Assembly (NCBI GenBank): GCA_964016885.1
Contig: OZ024761.1
Span: 17,670,001 to 17,734,000, forward strand
Reading direction: 5' to 3'
Length of the DNA: 64,000 nucleotides
Source: Eledone cirrhosa
Taxonomy: Eukaryota
Shown here: positions 8,375 through 53,784 of the stretch, piece after piece
Layout of the letters: each line of letters opens with the position of its first letter
Numbering within the stretch: the first letter of the stretch is position 1
Translations under genes and position numbers: made by a program
Notes under the pieces: generated by a model
Database searches by the model: none
What the model was told of the DNA's origin: nothing
Seen by the model: only the letters and a program-made list of their open reading frames with translations

Positions 8375-8425
8375 TTTATTAGCCAACAATGTTTCGTCCT
8401 ATTAAGGACTCATCAGGGCAATAAA
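8375..8425 (-). ncRNA. Minimal type I hammerhead ribozyme motif
   Basis: Minus strand TTTATTGCC-CTGATGA-GTCC(ttaata)GGAC-GAAAC-att-GTT-GGCTAATAAA: canonical core, G-C closed stem II, stem I TTTATT.GCC/GGC.AATAAA. Confidence 0.8.
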
Positions 8426-9814: not shown

Positions 9815-10185
9815 ATATATAAATACATAATTGGAGAAAGCTTATAGCGATACTCCTGCTATATTCCAACTCACTCAACAATCATTAGGAAATAACTGAG
9901 TATATTCCCAATTAAATGTTCGGGGTGCTAACTAATTGTATTGTGTGGAAAATTGGCTTTATCATTTCATATGAGATATATCAAATATATCATTTCCCAG
10001 ACGGAAGTCTAGTTTCACTATAAGATTTCTACAAGTTGGGTGAAATTATACCAATTTTTGTAGAAGCTTGTATAAGATCAACAGATACTTATTCAAGTGG
10101 GCTCTTATAATAACTAATATAACTATGTACAGTTGCCTCCTGTGTTTTGTTCATTTATTTTCAACTTTACACACACACATATATA

Positions 10186-11366
10186 TTGCGAAGGCCTTCA
10201 ATTCTGTGCCACACAAAAGGCTTATGGCAAAACTCTCTGCAATGGGTGTGAAGGATGATCTTTTTAACTGGTTGAAGTCCTTCATTCTCAGTCGAAGAGA
10301 GGTAGTCACGGTTCTGGGACAGCATTCCTCACCATATGAGATGTCATCTGGTGTACCTCAGGGATCTGTTCTTGGCCCCCTTTTGTTTGTGGCATATATT
10401 AATGACATAGATGCCAACTTAAGGAATGCCACAGTACTAAAGTACGCAGACGACATCAAGCTGTACCTTGAGATAAAAAGGACAGATCCTGAACACTATA
10501 GATCTTGCTTGCAGTCTGACCTGGACACAATGCAACAGTGGATCTCAGACTGGCAACTCAAGCTAGCTGTGGACAAGTGCACCACCATGCATTTTGGGAG
10601 TAAAAACCCAGCGTCCACATACTCCCTCCACAGCACTAATATCAAGAAGTCTTCCTGTGAACGTGACCTGGGCATTACGGTCAGCAGCGATTTGCGTTGG
10701 ACGAGGCACGTCTCTAAAATTGTCAAGAGGGCCGAGGGTGTCTTAGCATCACTCAGCAAGACCTTTGTCAGCCGCTCTCCAGATATCTATTTAAGGCTGT
10801 ATACAGCTATGGTGCGACCACACTTAGAATTTGCATCACCAGTCTGGAACCCCTATCTTGCTCAGGACATTGACCGCCTGGAAACTGTTCAGAGACGTGC
10901 AACCAAGCGAATACCCTCCATCAGGCATCTACCATACTCTGAGCGCCTTGCTTCCCTGGGCATGGATTCATTGAAGCTCCGACGCCTGGCAACTGAATTG
11001 GTAAACACCCACAATATTGTTAACCATGTTGCCAACAACAACCCTGAGTACCTTTTTGATTTCCATGTGTCTAACACACGTGGACATGCCCACAAAGTAA
11101 GAAAACAGCACAGTTCCCATGACTTTCGGAAACATTTTTTCACGCTCAGAGTTGCTGAAGCATGGAACAAACTACCTGCATCAGTTGTTAGCTGTCGAGA
11201 CACTGCATCCTTTAAGGCCTCCATGCTTCCCGATATCCGCCAACAGAACAGCTAACACATACACACATGTACTTCCCTGACATTTGTGTATTATTCTATG
11301 TACTATATTGACGAGTTGTAGTGCACCTGAGCACTTTACACAATAATTTCATTATTATTATTATAT
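10186..11366 (+). mobile_element. CR1-clade LINE, 5'-truncated, uninterrupted RT ORF (10186-11255)
   Basis: AKAFNSVPH, SGVPQGSVLGPLLF, YADD, ERDLG, YTAMVRPHLE, W.P....DI..LE.VQRRATK, FFT.RV..AWN.LP; (ATT)n tail. Confidence 0.92.
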
Positions 11367-11512: not shown

Positions 11513-11907
11513 AGGCACATGGCTTAGTGGTTAGAGCATTGGGCTTGCAATCGAAAGGTTGTGAGTTCAATTCTCGGACCGGTGGATGTGTTGTTTCCTT
11601 GAGCAAGACACTTTGTTTCACATTGCTCCAGTTTACTTAGCTGTAGAAATGAGATGATAGGACTGGGGTCCCTATCATTCCACTGCAAAGTGGTCGTGGA
11701 GGTGCCACGGCAAAAAAGCACTCAGCACTCACTGTAAATGAGGTTGGTGTTTAGGAAGGGCATCCAGCTGTAGAAATCAAGCCAGAATCAGTTCCTGTAT
11801 GAGCACGACAAGGTCAACCGACTGGACACTGCCCACAACAGGACAACCCATCTAACCCATGCTAGCGTGGAAGAACGGACATAAAACGGTGATGATGATG
11901 ATGATGA

Positions 11908-15426: not shown

Positions 15427-15672
<246 letters not shown>

Positions 15673-15757
15673 ATATATATTCTACTTATGTATTGAGTAC
15701 TTTACTTACTGTGGTTACCCCCGATTGGACCCGGGACTCACATATATAAACACACAC

Positions 15758-15848: not shown

Positions 15849-15983
15849 ATAGGAACGAGTAGGACCCCGACGGCTGAGCTCAAGCCGTTTCGACGGCTAA
15901 TTCTGGACTAAACATTTTTAGTCCAGAATTAACCGTCGAAACGGCTTGAGCTCAGCCGTCGGGGGTCCTACTCGTTCCTATTA
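15848..15983. repeat. Near-perfect ~135-bp palindrome of a dispersed (TA)n-associated element
   Basis: TAATAGGAACGAGTAGGACCCC...GGGGTCCTACTCGTTCCTATTA; related sequence at 5350-5480, 7890-7945 and 12177-12300. Confidence 0.85.
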
Positions 15984-16202
15984 CCCACTCTACTACCCTA
16001 AGTATTGAGTACTTTGGTGCGTTATGGTCCACCTGGTTCCTTACCACATTTCCTTTGTTATATATATATGCAGAAGTTATATTTAATTTGTTGGGATTCC
16101 AACAAGCTTAAAAGTTTATAACTGATATAAAGCACTCAACAGTTTACTGGAGTAAATATTCAATATATTAATAAATGGAAACTATATTTATAAAACCATA
16201 AT

Positions 16203-16267
16203 TATTTTATTATATATATTTCAAGGGCTACCAAAGCAGTCTTGGTGCGCTTTCATCAGATAAAATA
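16203..16267 (-). ncRNA. Type I hammerhead ribozyme motif, family H1 copy a
   Basis: TATTTTAT-CTGATGA-AAGCGCACCAAG(actgc)TTTGGTAGCCCTT-GAAA-TATATATA-ATAAAATA. Confidence 0.75.
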
Positions 16268-16345
16268 CAAGATTTGTTTTATAAATATTGACATAACCGT
16301 GGAAAAACAACCTTGATGGTTGAAAGTTCGCTGGATAGTGGAAAA

Positions 16346-16391
<46 letters not shown>

Positions 16392-16523
16392 GGAGAAGTT
16401 CTATTTAAATTGTTGGGATACAACAAGCAAATATTTTTATAACTGATATAAAGCACTCAACAAATTATTGGAGTAAAAATACGATATATGAACAAATGGA
16501 AACTATATTTATAAAACCATATT

Positions 16524-16588
16524 TATTTCATTATACATATTTCAAGGACACCAAGTTAAATTATGGTGTGCTTTCATCAGATAAAATA
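16524..16588 (-). ncRNA. Type I hammerhead ribozyme motif, family H1 copy b
   Basis: TATTTTAT-CTGATGA-AAGCACACCA(taatttaact)TGGTGTCCTT-GAAA-TATGTATA-ATGAAATA. Confidence 0.75.
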
Positions 16589-16815
16589 TAATATAGATCA
16601 GTTTTATAAATAAATATTGACATACCCTTAAAGAATGCGACCATTTCTGTTGGAAGCTCCCAGATAGTGGGGTTATAAATTTATTTATACTATTAAACTA
16701 ATTTACATAATAGACTAAATAAATTTAATAACCCCACTATCCGGGAGCTTCCAACAGAAATAGTCGCATTCTTTAAGGGTATGTCAATATTTATTTATAA
16801 AACTGATCTATATTA

Positions 16816-16880
16816 TATTTTATCTGATGAAAGCACACCATAATTTAACTTGGTGTCCTTGAAATATGTATAATGAAATA
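16816..16880 (+). ncRNA. Type I hammerhead ribozyme motif, family H1 copy c (mirror of b)
   Basis: Inverted copy of 16524-16588 within the ~430-bp palindrome 16490-16915. Confidence 0.75.
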
Positions 16881-16923
16881 AATATGGTTTTATAAATATA
16901 GTTTCCATTTGTTAATATATCGT

Positions 16924-16954
<31 letters not shown>

Positions 16955-16980: not shown

Positions 16981-18133
16981 TCATCATCATCATCATCATC
17001 ATTTTACGTCCGCTTTTCCCTGCTTGCAAGGGTGGGACGGGTCTTATTCAGCACAGCATCTCTCCACTCGTCACGGTCCCTCGTCATCTCCACCGTGAGC
17101 TTCAATGATCTGAGGTCTGTTCTCACCACCTCCGCCCATGTTTTTCGTGGTCTACCTCTACCACGTCTTCCTTCAACTGGCACTTCCTGGCACTTCTTCA
17201 CCCATCGGTCATCCTCCATGCGCATCACATGTCCATACCACCTCAGTCTCCTCTCCCGTACACTACATTCTATCCCTCTCAGACACAGTTTCTCTCTCAA
17301 CACATTTATGCTGGGTCGTTCACGCACATTTACACTGCACATCCAACGGAGCATGCTTGCCTCATTTCTCTCCAGCCGTCGCATATCTTCTGCGGTAGCT
17401 GCCCATGTCTCACTACCATGCAGCATCGCGCTCCTCACACAGGCATCATACAACCGGCCTTTCGTACGCAGGGAGAAACCCTTCTTCGTCAACAGAGGAA
17501 GCAGCTCCCTAAACTTCTTCCAACCCGTCCTTATTCTAGATACTATGGCCTCGGAACACCCTCCTCCCATGCTAATCTGATCTCCTAGGTACCGGAAGCT
17601 ATCCACCACTTCTATAGCGCCCTCTCGCATTTGAAAAATGTGTCTATCAGTGCGACTTCTACTGTCTAATTTCCCTGTACATCTACTGCATACATATTTC
17701 TCCCTACCTGTTAGTTTGCCTGCTATCCCGCTACATCTCTTGTGTACCCAGGACCTACATTGTGTGCATTTTATAGAATTTATGCCAGTTCCTTTTCTGC
17801 ATATCGAACATGGCCATTTCCCTGACGGAATCAGGGTTTTGTCCTCTTTTCTACTCATCAACACTTTTGTCTTAGCTAGATTTACTCTCAGTCCTCTTGC
17901 TTCCAACTGCTGTTTCCATAGCCGGAATTTATTCTCTAGCTCCTCTACTGATTCTGCCATAAGAGCCAGATCGTCAGCATAGAGAAGTTCCCATGGACAG
18001 CCAGTCTTAAACTCCTCTGTTATGGCTTGGAGGACTATAATGAACAAGAGCGGGCTGAGGACCGAACCCTGATGTACTCCTACTTGTATCTGGAATTCCT
18101 CACTAAACTCCATTCCTACCCTGACTTTACTGA
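16981..18133 (-). mobile_element. RTE-clade LINE, 5'-truncated, open RT ORF with internal PHD finger
   Basis: GVHQGSVLSPLLF, LLYADD, VDSFRYLG, LHGSETW, RRLRWYGHVMR, RGRGRPRKTW; (GAT)n tail. Confidence 0.92.
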
Positions 18134-18279
18134 GATATATATACATATATACATATATATATACATATAACAAAAAACAAAACAAGAAAGAAGCACAGCA
18201 TCTCAAGAATGTGAGAGATATGGAGAGAGGGGTAGTGAGGTGTTATCTGAGGTAGAATCTTTTTGGTATGTTCTAGGTT

Positions 18280-21915: not shown

Positions 21916-22417
21916 CATTAACTACACACCACTATCACTACACACCAGGACTAACCACCACCACCACCACCACCACCAACGACCACTAACCACCACCACC
22001 ACCGACCCTATTGTTTAAATTTGTTGGTAGTTCATTGGTGTTAGTACCCACTCCCTACTAACTTAATTACTTAGTTGCTTAATTACCACATATACTAATT
22101 GCCTTAGAAATATTGCAGGGACACACACACACATATGTATATATACACAGACATACACACATATATGTATATACACACGAACTCATATATGTATATATAT
22201 ACACGCATACACACATATGTATATATACACACATGTATATATACAAACAAACACAAACATACATATGTATATATATATATATACACACATACATGTATAT
22301 ATACACACATATATGTATATATACACACACATACATACATATATGTATATAATATGTATATATACACACACATGTATACCCACACACACACACACACACA
22401 TATATATGTATATATAC

Positions 22418-24410
22418 GGGTAAGGCGGCTGGGCCTTTGGAAATAGTTGCTGAGATGCTGAAGGCCTCTGGAACGGTGGGACACACCATGGTCACCCGGA
22501 TAGTAAACCAAGTCATACAGAATGGGGTTGTTCCGAAGGACTGGCGTAGCAGCATCATCATTAACTGTTACAAGGGTAAAGGAGATGCTCTTGATAGGAG
22601 TAACTATAGAGGCATTAAATTAATCGACCAGGTCATGAAGGTCACGGAAAAAGTAATAGTGCAACTAATCAGAGAGAGAATCGATCTAGATGAAATGCAG
22701 TTCGGGTTTGTGTCAGGCAAAAGTACCACAGACGCTCTTTTCATTGTACGACAACTACAGGAGAAGTACCTAGCTAAAAGTAAACCCCTATACTTAGCCT
22801 TTGTCGACTTGGAGAAAGCCTTCGACAGAGTCCCCCGTTCCATTATCTGGTGGGCTCTTAGAAAACTAGGTGTTGACGAATGGCTTGTGAGAGCTATACA
22901 AGCCATGTATAAAGAAACAGTGAGCAAGGTTAGAATTAACAACGAATATAGTGAAGAGTTTAGCGTAAAAGTTGGTGTCCATCAGGGCTCTGTTCTTAGC
23001 CCCCTACTATTTATTATTGCTCTTCAGGCTATAACAGAGGAGTTCAAGACCGGCTGCCCATGGGAACTCCTATACGCAGATGACCTAACGCTCATAACTG
23101 AATCAATGGCCGAGCTAGAGAAGAAATTCCAAACATGGAAGCACGGCCTAGAATCAAAAGGCCTTAAAATTAACCTGGCTAAGACTAAAGTTCTAGTTTG
23201 TAGGAAAGAAAATAAGGCGCTGGTCCCTTCCGGGAAATGGCCATGCTCAGTGTGTAGGAAAGGCGTAGGTAGAAACTCCATTTTATGTCCCAAATGCAAA
23301 GTATGGGTGCATAAAAGATGTAGTGGGATCACAGGTAAGCTAACTAAGAACACAGATTTTACATGTGGCCGGTGCTCTGGTGCAATAAGTAGCAGCAAGT
23401 GCCCACAAAATACTAGCTCTTTCAACTGCGCAGAGGGTTCTATAGAAATAGTGGACAGCTTCCGTTACCTGGGTGACAAAATCAGCAGTGGGGGAGGGTG
23501 CTCTGAAAGTACAGTAGCTAGAGTCAGAACTGGATGGAAAAAGTTCAGAGAGCTTATACCACTATTAGCCGCTAAAGGGTTCTCCCTAAAAATGAAAGGC
23601 AGGTTGTATGATGTCTGCATACGAACAGCAATGTTGCATGGCAGTGAGACCTGGGCATTGTGTGCAGAGGATATACGCAGACTAGAGAGGAACGAAGCTT
23701 GCATGCTCCGCTGGATGTGTAATAGTAATATACGCGAATGGCAAAGCATAAACGAACTAAGGAAAAAATTAGAAATAAGAGGGATCAGATGTTGTTTACT
23801 CGAGAGAAGGCTACGTTGGTATGGTCACGTGATGCGCATGAAAGACGACAGCTGTATAGCAAAGTGCAGGGCAATAAAGATAGATGGTAGCCACGGAGTA
23901 GGCAGACCCAGAAAAACCTGCGACAAGCTGATAAATTCCGACCTCACACACACCTCTCCAAGACAATGTCACTGGACCGAGACCTTTGGCGGTACTCAGT
24001 GATAGAGAAGACCCGCCTTACCTAAATACAAAGTAAAACCTACTACAGTCAGTAGGCATCTCTAACAAAATACACCCCCGTCCCACCACCCCCGTCCCAT
24101 CCACACCGCCCCTTTCAATGTTGGTGCCACAAAATCCAGGCCGAAACAAATGAGATCGTGTAGGTGTCACGACAAAAAACACACAGTCCACGCTGTAATG
24201 TGACCGTGTAGGCAACACGGTAAAAACCTCCCAGCCCCACACTGTAAATGTGGTTGGTGTTAGGAAGGGCATCCAACTGTAGAAAACCCGCCAGACAGTC
24301 CTATGCGAGCAAGACAACCACTCTTGCCTCAAGTCGGAAAACTCCCATCCAAACCCATGCAAGCGTGGAACATGGACGTTAAACGATGATGATGATGATG
24401 ATGATGATGA
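22418..24410 (+). mobile_element. RTE-clade LINE, 5'-truncated, near-intact RT with internal PHD finger
   Basis: YKGKGD...SNYRGIKL, QFGF, FVDLEKAFDRVPR, GVHQGSVLSP, YADD, FRYLG, RRLRWYGHVMR; frameshift near the 3' end; (GAT)n tail. Confidence 0.93.
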
Positions 24411-25791: not shown

Positions 25792-28700
25792 GTAAGTATA
25801 TATATATTTATATATCTTGTGTGGTGTGTGCGATGTGGGATTGGCAATCATTAAGCCCTGGGTTACCATGGCCTTTATGATCTGAGTTCAAATCCCGCCG
25901 AGGTTAACTTTGCCTTTCATCCTTATGGGGTCGATAAAATAAAGTACCAGTAATGCACTGGGTAATTGTGGCCTTGTGCCTAAAGTAGAAACAATTAATT
26001 GGTAAGTATATATATATTTATATATCTTGTGTGGTGTGTGTGATATGGGCTTGGCAATCATTAAGCCCTGGGTTAACATGGCCATAGGGGGCTTGGGCAG
26101 GGGTAGTACCTTTGATGGTTGACAGCTGCACCCTAACTAGTAGGGTGGTCAGTCATCACCGGCCCCCACCCATCCCCTAAATCTCTCACGTGTGACTCCA
26201 AGCGCCATGCCCCGGCACACCGCTTCAGCTGGTGGACTGAACCACGTGAGGGGGTGGTGTTGACACGGCACCACTAGGCATATGAGCTTCAACACGGAAG
26301 CCACTGGTTAAAGCAGAAGGAAATCCTCCCTCGGCACCGGTCCAGGACTGAAGGCGACCCACACCATATTCCGTGGCCATTGGTTTGCAGTTCTACTAGA
26401 GACTACTGTCTCTTTACTAAATGTCAGTGGTTGGGCTTCAGGTCAGCGACCTGTTCCCGGAAAAACTCTCCTGCTACGAAAACAATTCATAGTGCATCAG
26501 ATTCAAATTCCAAGCAGTCAGGAGAACGGTTGTCTCTAACCGGAGATTGTGTGACGGGTGTCGGCGAAAGTCTCGATGAGGAAGCCGACATCCTGAGGAC
26601 CAGAATTCTGTCTGCAAAAATAACCACACGTATTGGATATTGGAACATAAGAACTCTGTACCAACCATCCAAACTTGCGCAAGTTATTGGAGAAATGGAG
26701 ACCTACAAAATTAACATCCTGGACCTCAGCAAGGTCCGTTGGACTGACTCTGGAAAGTTTGTCCATGAAAACAAGACCCTCCTGTTCTCAGGCCGTCAGA
26801 ATGGGACCTACCGAGATGGACTTGCAATCATCATGGTCAGGGCTGCCAGTAGTGCCCTTGAGGAGTGGACTCCTATCAACGAACGCCTAATGACAGCAAG
26901 ATTCACCACATCACATGCAAAGGTCACCATAGCTCAGTGCTATTTTCCAACCAACGAACATAACAACGATGACAAGGACGCTTTCTACCAGCAACTACAA
27001 GATGTTGTCAACAAAACCCCACGTCATGACATCCTGATCATCATGGGAGACATGAACGCACAGATCGGGGGAAGCAGGGTTGGCTTTGAACATGTCCTTG
27101 GCCCCCATGCTTATGGAAACCGCACGGACAACGGGGACAGGTTTGTCCAGTTCTGTGCCATGAACAATATGAAAATCGGCTCGTCACTATTTGACCACAA
27201 GAACATCCACAAGGTCACATGGGCTTCGAACGACCACAGGACCAAGACGCAAATAGACCACATTGCAATTGGCCCAAGATGGAGAACTCCTTGCCTGCAG
27301 GACGTCCGTGTCTACCAAGGCGCAGATGTCTGCAGTGACCACTATCTGTCTATTACCAAACTTAAAATCAGACTGAGGAAGCAGAAGAAGAAAGCACCCA
27401 CTACAAGGCGTTTTGACACTACCAAGCTGAAGAATGGTGACACAGAAGCACAGTTCCGGGCTGCTTTGAGGAGTCTGCACAAGGCTCGGTCAATTGGTGG
27501 GAGGAAATGAAGAAGACCATGGAAGCTGCAGGGGAAGAAGTCCTGGGCTACAGGAAGTCCCTCAGAGAAGCTTGGGTCAGCGACAACACCTGGCAGCTGA
27601 TTAATGAAAGGAAAGCCCTACACCAGTAGAGGCATGCCACTACCCCAGAGGCCATCAAAGTATATCAGCAGTATGTTGAGAAGAACAAGGAGGTGAAACG
27701 CAGCGCCCAAAAGGACAAACGAATGTGGCTTGAGAGTAAGGCAGAGGAGGCAGAAGCAGCTGCGGCACGCAATGACATGCGCTCTGTGTACCAAATTGCC
27801 AAGAAAATCACCGGCAGCTCTAGAGCTAACTCAGGCCCGGTGAAAGCGAAAGATGGTACGCTGCTTTCCAAGGGGGAATAAAAGTTAGTCAGATGGGCTG
27901 AACATTTCAAAGAAGTCCTCAACCGACCGGAGCCACGTATGCCAGCAGACACTAAGGAACCTACTAGTTTGTTACCTATCAATACTGATGACTTCACCGA
28001 GAAGGAATTCCGCATGGCCATCAAAACCCTTAAGAATAACAAGTCACCAGGTATGGATGGCATTTCTACTGAAATGCTGAAGTCAGGAGGCAAAAGCATG
28101 GTCAAGTAGATGGGGCACTTATGTAATCTTGTGTGGAACACGGGTGAAGTCCCAGAAGACTGGAGAAACGGAGCGGTTGTCTGTATCCCCAAGAAGCGCA
28201 ACCTTGCCGATTGTGACAACTGGAGGGGAGTGACACTTCTCTCCATACCAGGGAAGGTCTGTTGTCTAGTGATCCTGAACCGCATGCATGGCATGGTAGA
28301 CCGGTAACTGCGAGAAGAACAGGCAGGGTCCCGACCAAAACGTTCCTGTGCAGAGCAGATCTTTACGCTATGCCGCATCATTGAGAGGTACAACAAATTC
28401 CAGAGGCCCCTCGCCATCAGCTTCATCGATTTCTCCAAAGTATTCGATAGCATTCATCGACCGTCGCTCTGGAGCATCATGCATGAGTAGGGTCTGCCCC
28501 AGAAAGTCATTTCGGCAATCAAACAGATTTACGCAAACTCCAAGTGCTGCATACGGACAGAGGATGGTTACAGTGACTGGTTTGAGGTGGTTACTGGCGT
28601 GCGTCAGGGTTGCTCATTCTCTCCAATTCTCTTTGCCATAGCCATTGACTGGGTACTAAGAAGAGCATCTAAAGACCAGGGTATATCTTGGGTGGGAGAG

Positions 28701-37621: not shown

Positions 37622-37670
<49 letters not shown>

Positions 37671-37895
37671 ATTAAATAAATGGAAACTATATCTATAAAA
37701 CCATATCTATTTCATTATATATATTTCAGGGATATCATATTAACAATATGCTATGCCTTCCTCAGACAAAATACAATATAAACAGTTTTATAGATAAATA
37801 GATTCGACATACCGTAACAACATCGACTTGTATTTGAAAAGGTTGATTTGGCAGTATTTACTAGTTGTAACCCAACAATTTAAATATAACTTTCC

Positions 37896-37962
<67 letters not shown>

Positions 37963-46600: not shown

Positions 46601-49600
46601 ATATATATATATACAAATATATGTATACAAATATACATATACAAATACAAATATATATATATATACATATATACATATATTTAAAGGTTAAACAAGGTTC
46701 AATGAATAAATCAAAGAATGAGTTTTACAATAGATTGGAAGCACTCAATGTCATGCATCATCTTATTTTATCTGATGAGGACGTACTGTTGAGGTTAACT
46801 CAGTACCTCTGAAATATGTATAATAAAATATACTTGATCACAAGAATATCTATTTTGTTAATATTTTGAATTAATATTATACAGATATACATATATACAT
46901 ATATATATATGTACACATCATCATCATCATCTTCGTTTAACGTCCATCTTCCACGCTAGCATGGGTTAGACGGGAGTAGTCCCATTTGAGGTAAGGCTGG
47001 TCGGGTGACCGTGTCTCGCTCGTATAGGACTATCTGGCAGGTTTTCTATGGCTGGCTGCCCTTCCTAACACCAACCACATTTACAGTGTGGACTGGGAAC
47101 TTTTTACTGTGTTACCTACACAGCCACATTACAGCGTGGACTGTGTGTGTTTTTTGTCGTAACACCTACACGATCTCGATCTCATTATCTCATTTATTTC
47201 GACTGGATGTTGTGGTACATATATATATATATACACACATATATATATATATATATATACATAGATACATATATACAGGGTGCGGACAATATTTGTTCGC
47301 AAGATTACTGTCTAGGAAAAAATAATACAGTAGTTTTATTTTTTAAGATTTATTTATCAAACTTGGGTCAGTTTGTCTTCATGACTTGTTCTTTTGATCT
47401 CACTCAATAAACCCGCCATTGGCTTTGATGATGGCCTCAAGGCGGCCTTGGAACTGGCTACAGGCCTTTGTCAATGTCCCCCGACTTAGGCCCCTAAAGG
47501 CACTTGTGATCCTGGCCTTCAGATCGTCTTTCGTATTGCAGCTAGATCTGTTGGCGTCTCGTTCCACTGCGCCCCACACAAAGAAGTTGAGGGGGGTTGC
47601 AGTCAGGCGAGCTGGGAGGCCAGATGTCAGGTGAAGTGTGGTCGATGAAGTTCTCTGACAACCAGGCTTGGGTCTTTTGGCTGGTATGGCAGGGTGCTGA
47701 GTCTTGCTGCCACACGTACGACCTACTTGCAGCTACCTGGTCGATCCAGGGCTTTACTACCTCGCTCAGAACGCGGATGTAGCCATTGGTGTTCAGCTTG
47801 AGGCCCTCAGGGAAGAAGTGAGGTGGGATGACGTCACCTTGACTGCTGACGACACCTAAGACCAATGTTGTCGCTGGAAACTTTGTCTGCATGACTCTGG
47901 GCACGTCTTTGGATGAGACAGCGAGCCACCTGTTGTTCTGGGAGTTGATCTTCTGGTTTTATTTGTCCTCCCGGCGCGGATTCCAAGAAGAACTCCATAT
48001 CTCTTCCACAAATTTGGAGGTTCAAAATTATTCATAATGAATTATTCTGAAAATAAATAATGGAAATATAGTCACTGTTTTTATGAAGATAAGAGTGACA
48101 ACGGAAGTAAAAAAAATGTGCATAAAATTAGCAGTTGAAAATTGCGAACAAATATCGTCCACACCCTGTATATACATAGATACACCTCATTTACACAGAC
48201 GAGAAACCTATATATTCTCGCCTGTCTTCTAGTGTAGCAGTCACAATCGGTGGGAGGGACCGTTCTGACGATGGCCAGTTAAGCCTTAAATGCATAGACG
48301 GTTGTCCCCCTTGCTTCTGCTGGACATCACCAGAGGGCGTTTCCATTCAAATCCCGCCAAGGTTAACTTTGCCTTTCATCCTTACGGGGTCAATAAAATA
48401 AAGTACCAGTAATGCACTGGGTAATTGCTGGCCTTGTGCCAAAAATAGAAACAATTATTATAAGGGCAGTGAATTTAGCAGTACTGGCAGGGGGTCGGAC
48501 GCCATGCTTTGCAACATAGAGTTATTCCCCTTTATGGTCTGAGTTCAAATCCCACCGAGGTTAACTTTGCCTTTCATGCTTACGGGGGTCGATAAAATAA
48601 AGTACCAGTAATGCACTGGGGTAATTGCTGGCCTTGTGTCAAAAGTAGAAACAATTATTTCTTGGTCAATAAAATAAAGTACCAGTAATGCACTGGGGTA
48701 ATTGCTGTCCTTGTGCCAAAAGTAGAAACAATTATTTCTTGGTCAATAAAATAAAGTACCAGTAATGCACTGGGGTAATTGCTGTCCTTGTGCCAAAAGT
48801 AGAAACAATTATTTCTTGGTCAATAAAATAAAGTACCAGTAATGCACTGGGGTAATTGCTGTCCTTGTGCCAAAAGTAGAAACAATTATTTCTTGGTCAA
48901 TAAAATAAAGTACCAGTAATGCACTGGGATAATTGCTGGCCTTGTGCCAAAAATAGAAACAATTATTATGATGATTGCTAAAATGTTCACTGAATTGTTG
49001 TTGGTCTATGCACAGGATGGTAATTTTATCCACAAGATTGAACTCCTGTGTGACACAGTTGTTCACCTGGAGAGTTTTGCTGGGTCCAGTCGTGCGGAGA
49101 ACCCCCTCTATAAGGAATATCACGGTGGGTACACACACAGTTTCATCTCTTCTACCTCCCTACCTTTCATGCACATACATCACATACATACACATACATA
49201 CACATACATACACAAATCACATGTACACACACAGCACATATATATATATACGCACATACATGTACACACGCACACATGTATACACACATACATGTACACA
49301 CATACTTGTATACACAATACTTAGCCTCCTCCTCTGCAGTAATATACAATACTTAGCCTCCTCTTCTGCAGTAATACACAATGCTAAAGTCCCTCAATAA
49401 AGTAACATACAATACATAGTCCCCTCTTCTGCAGTAATACACAATGCTAAAGTCCCTCACAATAAAGTAACATACAGTACATAACCCCTCTTCTGCAGTA
49501 ATATACAATGGTAAAGTCCCTCACAATACAGTAATATACAATACCAACTTCTACAGTAATATACAATACTCAGCCCCCTCTTCTGCAGTCATATACAATG

Positions 49601-52425: not shown

Positions 52426-53784
52426 TCCATATATGATGTTATCCAAGTTAAAGGCAAAGGCAGATACAGCTTAGCTTGAGTGCAGTGTTGTCACAACTCA
52501 TATATACACTATATATTTGTTATATATATGAACTATGTATACCATATATACATATATAAAGCATTAACCTAATATATTCCTTCCATATACTGTACCGATT
52601 GTGTTGTTATTTCTGTTTATCTTTTACATATATATATATATATTTAATATAGAAATGGCTTCTACAGGACTAGAACTGTTTCATTCAGGAGAAATCATCT
52701 GGAAGCCTTGATGGTTAAGAGGGGCACAGTGAAGGGTTAAAATATAAGTTTATCCAGGGTTCAATCGGGGGTAACCACATTAAGTAAGGTACTCAATACA
52801 TAGCAGAGTATAAATATTTAATATAGAAATGGCTTCTACAGGACTAGAACTGTTTCATTTCAACTGATGATTTCTCCCGAATGAAACAAGTCTAATCATG
52901 TAGAAGCCATTTTTATATTAAATATTTATACTCTGCTATGTATTGAGCACCTTACTTACTGTGGTTACCCCCGATTGAATCCGGGATAAACTTGTGTATA
53001 CGATGTTGTCTAAGGGAAAGATGAAGGCTTATACAGCTTGGTACCAGTGTTGTCACAGGTGAACACAGAATACAACTGACTGAAAGAGTTTCAGTCTTAA
53101 CCATCATTATAACATGATATAAAATATCTTGTGGTCCTAAATCCGGTTCCTAGCATTCTCAGTTCCAGACCCTACGATGGACAGGCGTCCTATTCAGAGG
53201 AGAGTCATGGAAACTGAGATACGCACCAGTCTGATGAGCCTCTGGGTTCAAGACAGGCATTAGCCTATGGCAATAGTAACCTCACAGAATTGTCATACCA
53301 TTCAAAGGGATGCTTTCTGGTATTGGTTCTAAGTTCCAATCGTTTTTTTCCATCCTTCCAGATAAAGAACCTGTCCCTATCCCTAACTGTCAGAGATGGG
53401 CATATGATATTTGTTTCACCAATGTCACTTCTGAGTTCAAATCTTGGAGGGTAACCACATGCAGTCGAAGTTTCCATTTTGAGAACACGTCGTTTCCTCC
53501 TACCTATGTCAGAGGCATTGGAAAATATCTTCATCAGCACTAAAGATCCTTCCCTCTTTAAAGAAGTGATAAAAGAAAGAAACAAAGACTGTCATTCATC
53601 GATTTTAATTATTTCTGAAAGGAGGATTGTCTCCATTTAAACAGTAATTGTATAATTACCTCCCCTTTAATAACGCTAAAAAAAAATTCTTCAGGTTATC
53701 TGCCCTTAATATGAAAATATTTATACGTTTAATCTGTCAAGTGGCTTAGTGGTGAGGGTATTATTATTATTATTTTTAATTTTA

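Follow-up and report, generated by a model that had tools for sequence, protein, structure and literature searches.

The hammerhead motifs of the 64-kb window (the whole stretch of DNA analysed here) are, with a probability that we put at about 0.9, type I hammerheads carried in the pseudo-LTRs (pLTRs) of four related, very high-copy families of Hydra-clade Penelope-like elements (PLEs). The same reading holds that the window harbours truncated and head-to-head products of these elements in (TA)n, likely generated by target-primed reverse transcription that begins at either of two fixed sites. The four families are new families of a known kind of element.

Hammerhead motifs and element copies in the window

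A generic type I descriptor identified exactly five hammerhead motifs in the window (N17 at positions 16211 (−), 16532 (−), 16872 (+), 37716 (−) and 46822 (+)), which are the same five copies reported in an earlier note on this DNA. Each has an AUA site, the CTGANGA and GAAA elements, a stem I of 8 bp and a stem III of 2 bp closed by a 4-nt loop; the CUGANGA and GAAA core, the NUH site and stems I to III of a type I hammerhead are found in each of them. The stem II sequences given in that note are those present in the window copies, and each stem II has, beyond the pairs listed there, three further basal pairs and a C.C mismatch. The five motifs were without Rfam match among the best 150 of 167 matches at E ≤ 1, an output composed mostly of microsatellite and miRNA noise, and single-strand folding of the hammerheads gave z from −1.8 to +0.8. 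The shuffle expectation is a mean of 0.01 motifs (maximum 1) for a stem I of at least 5 bp and 0 for one of at least 7 bp (100 block shuffles). These shuffles, together with genome-wide pattern controls (3 and 0 matches), rule out a chance origin of the motifs.

The window families were named A (16203), B (16524/16816), C (37708) and D (46764). The pLTR fragment of family A (16070..16345, −), with 94–98% matches at dispersed loci, is a 5′-truncated insertion with a long 3′ end that is flanked by (TA)n runs. Its hammerhead spans 16203..16267 (−; predicted cut after 16211) and its sequence continues from a Hydra-type ORF in loci L136/L138. An (AT)n microsatellite (about 16345..16391) parts insertions A and B. 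Family B is present as two pLTR arms joined 5′-to-5′ at about 16696, a junction placed by eye in comparison with the family sequence. The long-ended arm (16392..16696, −; 98–99% matches genome-wide) ends at +140 from the cut and includes the family tail of about 90 nt (about 16392-16481, −) and a hammerhead at 16524..16588 (−; predicted cut after 16532). The short-ended inverted arm (16697..16922, +; 97% over 218 nt) ends at +50 and has its hammerhead at 16816..16880 (+; predicted cut after 16872). The inverted repeat of the two arms (16474-16682 and 16722-16930; 97% over 209 nt) accounts for the near-perfect hairpin that had been described before, with an overall length of about 457 bp and not about 430 bp. 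The third hammerhead copy lies in the inverted B arm, as the description of that hairpin implied; the hairpin itself is a head-to-head insertion product.

Family C is represented by a short-ended arm (37666..37854, −; 98–99% matches, family ORF in L096/L097) with a hammerhead at 37708-37773 (−; predicted cut after 37716), placed head-to-head with a long-end stub that consists of the last part of the tail (37855..37897, +). In family D a long-end stub (46682..46748, −), which is the inverted tail also present in L073 and L052, precedes a short-ended arm (46749..46878, +; family ORF in L098) whose hammerhead spans 46764-46830 (+; predicted cut after 46822). Positions 1-59 of the family D query match in the orientation opposite to that of 59-191. 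The window copies of B, C and D all have a head-to-head, long plus short build, the long arms of C and D being stubs without a ribozyme.

The segment 15400-16980 is a landing cluster of several insertions. A GC-richer inverted repeat (about 130 bp) with an adjoining repeat occupies 15850-16060; it has very high depth in mapped contigs, often adjoins A copies (L041, L053, L128) and is probably another (TA)n-targeting element. A second head-to-head repeat family lies in (TA)n at 15518-15680 and 52760-52990. It has hammerhead-like CTGATGA..GAA cores at 15588−, 15610+ and 52864+, with a stem II predicted to be very short, and is likely another PLE pLTR family. Position 8378-8422 (−) has a type I hammerhead core of canonical look with a 5-bp stem II, which scores 29.1 bits with Rfam Hammerhead_1, below the gathering score of 34. 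LINE-type RT frames and one APE-type endonuclease frame were found at 10044-11255, 17004-18242, 22353-24002 and 26278-27510, a PHD finger following the RT in two of the LINE-type frames. Weak tRNA-like matches (27–32 bits) at 11520, 29771, 36580 and 43678 are probably heads of tRNA-derived SINEs.

Genome-wide copies and assignment to the Hydra clade

The whole 3.0-Gb genome has 46,004 exact matches to the 21-nt 3′ half of the motif (control: 3) and 72,465 to its 19-nt 5′ half (control: 0); element copies number in the tens of thousands. A hammerhead core was present upstream in all of 30 loci drawn from the top of the list of 3′-half matches. Identity to close relatives genome-wide, with 40 candidates scored in each search, is 97–99% for family B, 94–98% for A, 98–99% for C and 84–99% for D. 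At their 3′ side the copies pass into (TA)n at fixed, shared positions; their 5′ ends vary. In a further related hammerhead family (L004, L168, L170 and others) stem II is longer and the stem III loop is GCGC, a perfect palindrome. An identical 13-nt internal deletion that removes GAAA is shared by L201 and L220, and a third deletion was found in L211.

The pLTR with its hammerhead flanks an ORF of 730–750 amino acids. In three B copies (L031-L033) a second same-strand pLTR is found 3437, 4091 and 3691 nt further on, with the ORF in between. In 12 of 14 loci the ATG follows the cut at a distance of 186–188 nt; in one locus the distance is 210 nt, and in one the ATG was not found. A search with the ORF amino-terminus gave 8555 candidates, and many of the 150 scored have open frames of ~745 amino acids. 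Three ORFs that are open in natural copies of B-like subfamilies (732, 742 and 735 amino acids) all code for RWR, DKT, YRDD, VVY..YVG (GIY-YIG-like), CxxC (CDLC) and CxH (CRH), and two of them also for the CxCX5C linker. DKG is absent from the three ORFs and a GIKF string is found in one; there is no CCHH in any of them, a single C and a single H being present in the GIY-YIG core region. Motifs and homologue annotation place the RT (YRDD) before a C-terminal GIY-YIG-like EN (VVY..YVG/R/H/E/N). Families A, C and D have their own ORFs beside their own hammerheads, and amino acid identity to the B ORF is 72–76% for C, 46–61% for D and mostly 67–80% for A. The designation “PLE-derived” used in the earlier note was right. 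All four families are linked, at other loci, to an ORF with RT and GIY-YIG-like domains. Pfam gave nothing significant (RT, GIY-YIG) for three broken-copy frames and the intact ORF, and neither did PDB sequence searches with the protein or a 95-sequence profile. A homologue (P0109) has a sub-threshold GIY-YIG match (E 3.7e-4), and GIY-YIG and RVT_1 are found in part of the members of the Atlas neighbours. The ORF homologues are 32–48% identical; two come from Argonauta hians, which also provides the nearest named one (39%).

The Hydra clade is characterized by RWK, DKT instead of DKG, an unconserved GxKF/Y, CxCX5C, no CCHH, CxxC and CxH around E and N, and a length generally <3 kb, given as a tendency only (features as described in PMC8557442). 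The present elements share with the clade, as presented in that source, a single ORF with the RT followed by a C-terminal EN, RW[KR], DKT, the CxCX5C linker, lack of CCHH and CxxC/CxH. They also share (TA)n targets, copies that are inverted or in partial tandem, a tail at one end and, close to the 3′ end, a type I hammerhead; (TA)n insertion, pLTRs, inverted 5′-truncated copies and a tail were all observed here. They differ from its description of the clade by a pLTR-to-pLTR period of 3.4–4.1 kb, which departs from the length tendency, a tail of about 90 nt instead of 30–40 bp, RWR for RWK, tens of thousands of copies, and a stem II that is longer and has an unvarying C.C/C.U mismatch (PMC8557442). 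The Hydra assignment is made by motifs, and by eye the ORFs also match the published Hydra-1_Obim and Hydra-1_Ajap proteins. Hydra-1_Obim from Octopus bimaculoides is one octopus Hydra member in the supplement of PMC8557442; its hammerhead sequence differs from the present one. Neptune/Nematis were ruled out by the absence of CX2-5CxxC, and Naiad by the C-terminal position of the EN in the present elements.

Stem II covariation and ribozyme fold

The 207 distinct hammerhead contexts represent 114 variants, 21 of which occur at two or more loci. Stem II positions 2, 3, 5, 6 and 7 are paired in all 21 shared variants, by A-U, G-C, C-G, U-A or G-U, and position 4 is invariably C.C or C.U in them. 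Among alternative pair types of the shared variants 10 pair and 3 do not, compared to private changes of which 7 keep and 25 break pairing (Fisher p 0.0015, a rough value that sets types against events). Thirty rows hand-chosen from the 114 variants for the covariation analysis (21 shared, 8 divergent singletons and window copy A) have two-sided change at 7 of 9 stem II pairs, and slid controls drop to 36–56% paired. The chosen rows reach 95.8 percent paired against 87.9 and 56 two-sided cells against 18; by these two measures and by score they beat 500 of 500 shuffles, but they did not do so by pairs with two-sided change (128/500) or further pair types (477/500). Stems I and III, both partly fixed by the finder, are without two-sided change in the 30 rows. 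Selection on stem II pairing is supported for element lineages, while dispersed copies appear to decay neutrally. The idea that stem II pairing is under selection, put forward on the window copies, is in this way borne out for source elements by the pairing of shared variants and by two-sided change. Covariation in PLE hammerheads has already been described (PMC4209133).

Three sequences occur in the stem III loop, ATAT, ATGT and GCGC, all of them perfect or near palindromes, and a palindromic stem III fits the expected cleavage as a dimer (PMC4209133; PMC6765202). The active monomer fold lies 3.7–5.1 kcal/mol above the MFE. The PLE pLTR hammerheads described in PMC4209133 are alike in being of type I, with a long variable stem II with compensatory changes and a short palindromic stem III. 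They are also alike in the many solo copies, the opposite-strand pairs 100–700 bp apart and the pairs about 3 kb apart around an ORF. The present ones differ from those described there by an 8-bp A/U stem I and, in stem II, by a mismatch inside the helix (position 4) in place of a 5′ bulge.

Insertion ends and head-to-head pairs

Insertion ends are found at +47–60 or +135–148 from the cut (+38–43 and +129–134 in the GCGC-loop family) and are bimodal in six of six stem II classes. The two fixed ends, about 90 nt apart, delimit a tail of about 90 nt. Published tails measure 30–40 bp, are described as often restricted to one end and are delimited by two RT start sites (PMC8557442; PMC11167929). 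We examined 50 head-to-head pairs and called both ends in 43, namely 40 long+short, two short+short, one short+other and no long+long. One short+short pair is across (TA)n and the other between different families. Among pattern-picked loci 13 of 15 pairs are long+short (p about 0.001 for 13 of 14, the different-family pair being dropped). Median identity is 0.99 between arms versus 0.88 between insertions.

Three head-to-head pairs without (TA)n in between (L147:1850-2700, L184:330-900 and L047:560-1160) have arms that are 89–94% identical and differ mostly in stem II. Their arms possibly come from two subfamilies, which would mean two templates per insertion. A conserved ACTCC..GT(T/C)GAGTGCT motif just inside the tail, predicted to form a small hairpin, is found in families A–F (e.g., window 16445-16475 (−)), and the element sequence after the long end is ATATAT, the same as the target repeat. 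The fold of the tail from three sequences is weak, with two-sided change at 1 of 27 pairs. A DNA search with the 97-nt tail as its sole query gave 7 candidates, too few for a count of copies.

The elements resemble PAc (Poseidon, Anolis; PMC11167929) in that two internal RT start sites delimit the tail and that targets are AT-rich. They belong to another clade, and their ORF starts about 188 nt after the cut instead of within stem II (PMC11167929). Use of the two ends is asymmetric here, in contrast to PAc, for which the source describes in vitro insertion without a strand difference in start site (PMC11167929).

Insertion model and role of the ribozyme

We propose that the GIY-YIG-like nuclease of the element would nick both (TA)n strands, that RNA of the same source element would be primed from one nick at its long site and from the other nick at its short site, and that the two truncated cDNAs would be joined 5′-to-5′ to give the “hairpin”. 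The ribozyme may be weakly active, either when two copies dimerise by their palindromic stem III or when a protein assists, and its predicted cleavage would trim or circularise the 3.4–4.1-kb element RNA. Selection on source elements would keep stem II paired, and dispersed copies would decay neutrally. Among 30 copies picked by downstream sequence, 28 read through the cut site upstream, three of them with internal deletions; of the other two, L205 has its start no more than about 3 nt from the cut and the second starts farther downstream. The inserted templates would therefore be mostly uncut or religated, as for PAc, whose inserted templates also have a mostly uncut hammerhead (PMC11167929).

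This read-through also fits a rival view that we hold to be unlikely, yet the most credible of the alternatives: the hammerhead fold would persist because the RNP uses it as a signal, structural or for dimerisation, and not for the sake of cleavage. It bears on the role of the ribozyme only and not on the identity of the element. In its favour, besides the 28 of 30 copies extending upstream through the cut, full-length copies reach past the upstream cut site on its 5′ side by hundreds of bases, and the main substrate of PAc is uncut RNA, catalytic mutants still inserting (PMC11167929). However, a circular or religated template would read through likewise, the catalytic core is kept across families at 46–80% ORF identity (the finder required the core), and 1 of the 30 copies (L205) does start next to the cut.

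A more specific form of the proposed insertion route is still more doubtful. PLE insertion would be strictly asymmetric and two-primed: of the two target nicks of each head-to-head insertion, one would use the long start site and the other the short one, which lies 90 nt upstream. The templates would be a pair of copies of one source RNA, held as a dimer, with the palindromic hammerhead stem III as the dimerisation signal. If true, such a route could be tested at genome scale with tens of thousands of young copies.

The 321-nt tandem

The spacing of 321 nt between the same-strand copies of A and B was verified. The earlier note read these copies as a retrozyme that could release a circular RNA of ~320 nt, a proposal that finds no support: the motif resides in pLTRs of autonomous, ORF-containing elements and the unit is an A/B chimera. 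The two copies belong to different families, are 83% identical and have an (AT)n run between them; the unit is made of the B 3′ tail, the (AT)n run and the A 5′ part. It matches as a whole its own locus only, the others matching one half (40 scored of 2292 candidates), and two further hits that span it were found at 70% and 78% among 196 fetched loci. In the fetched loci, same-strand pairs closer than 600 nt have different stem II sequences in 7 of 7 cases and a (TA)7+ run in between in 6 of 7. Neighbours within 5 kb at the first 100 places of contig C1 are 17 head-to-head, 8 same-strand (3 under 600 nt) and 2 tail-to-tail, and no short-period trimer was found at these places. Two different families that adjoin each other within an AT repeat make up the tandem, so that a small circular RNA element is unlikely here. 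Three runs of contigs, all from one sample, were mapped on 15985-16720, and their (TA)n ends are loose at about 16059-16069, 16156-16165 and 16491. By our inference these contigs resemble genomic DNA; they are unable to reveal ends or circles. Cross-matching subfamilies account for their low-depth A–B joints.

What defines a retrozyme is that its units stand in tandem and that it is non-autonomous (PMC7229834; bioRxiv 10.64898/2026.07.22.740005). In the sampled loci there are no consecutive homologous hammerhead units of 150–450 bp, and the four families link to an ORF instead of being non-autonomous and without one. The likeness to the non-LTR retrozymes described in PMC7229834 consists of the type I hammerhead, low GC and, at this locus only, a spacing of about 300 nt; the present sequence differs from them by lacking a homogeneous tandem array and by being part of an autonomous ORF-coding element.

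An accident of this single locus, in which the heterologous A and B hammerheads of a read-through transcript would pair and excise a 321-nt RNA as a possible first step in the birth of a retrozyme, is improbable. Both cores are intact, the stem III palindromes (ATATATAT, ATATGTAT) are compatible and mixed-family neighbours recur. Against it, PLE hammerheads are reported to cleave poorly even as dimers (PMC4209133) or to need the element protein (PMC11167929), the active monomer fold has the energy cost given above, and no promoter or host transcript was identified at the locus. Least credible is a reading of the A/B pair as the dimer of a non-LTR retrozyme, a dedicated non-autonomous repeat from which tandem hammerheads would release a ~320-nt RNA to be circularised and re-inserted: two same-strand type I hammerheads 321 nt apart at a GC of 25%, a spacing inside the 150–450-bp retrozyme range (PMC7229834) and the pLTR descent reported for retrozymes (bioRxiv 10.64898/2026.07.22.740005) would agree with it, but the units are 83% identical and each has its own 94–99% relatives elsewhere, the unit holds the (AT)n run and matches as a whole only itself among the 40 scored, and close same-strand pairs elsewhere are likewise of mixed families, with no short-period trimer in the sample.

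Significance

The finding itself is ordinary, as hammerheads in Hydra-clade pLTRs have already been published, one octopus family included. The literature searched, outside of which lay most subscription papers and Repbase/Dfam, gave no description of these families, the 90-nt tail or the C.C mismatch. Their value is that of a resource: there are many young subfamilies with 98–99% identical copies and open ORFs, and at least 72,000 hammerhead-bearing copies with natural covariation in a long stem II and an invariant C.C mismatch. The two-end signature is clean and the tail unusually long. All of this makes the elements well suited to studying how PLE pLTRs, tails and inversions arise and what purpose the ribozyme has.
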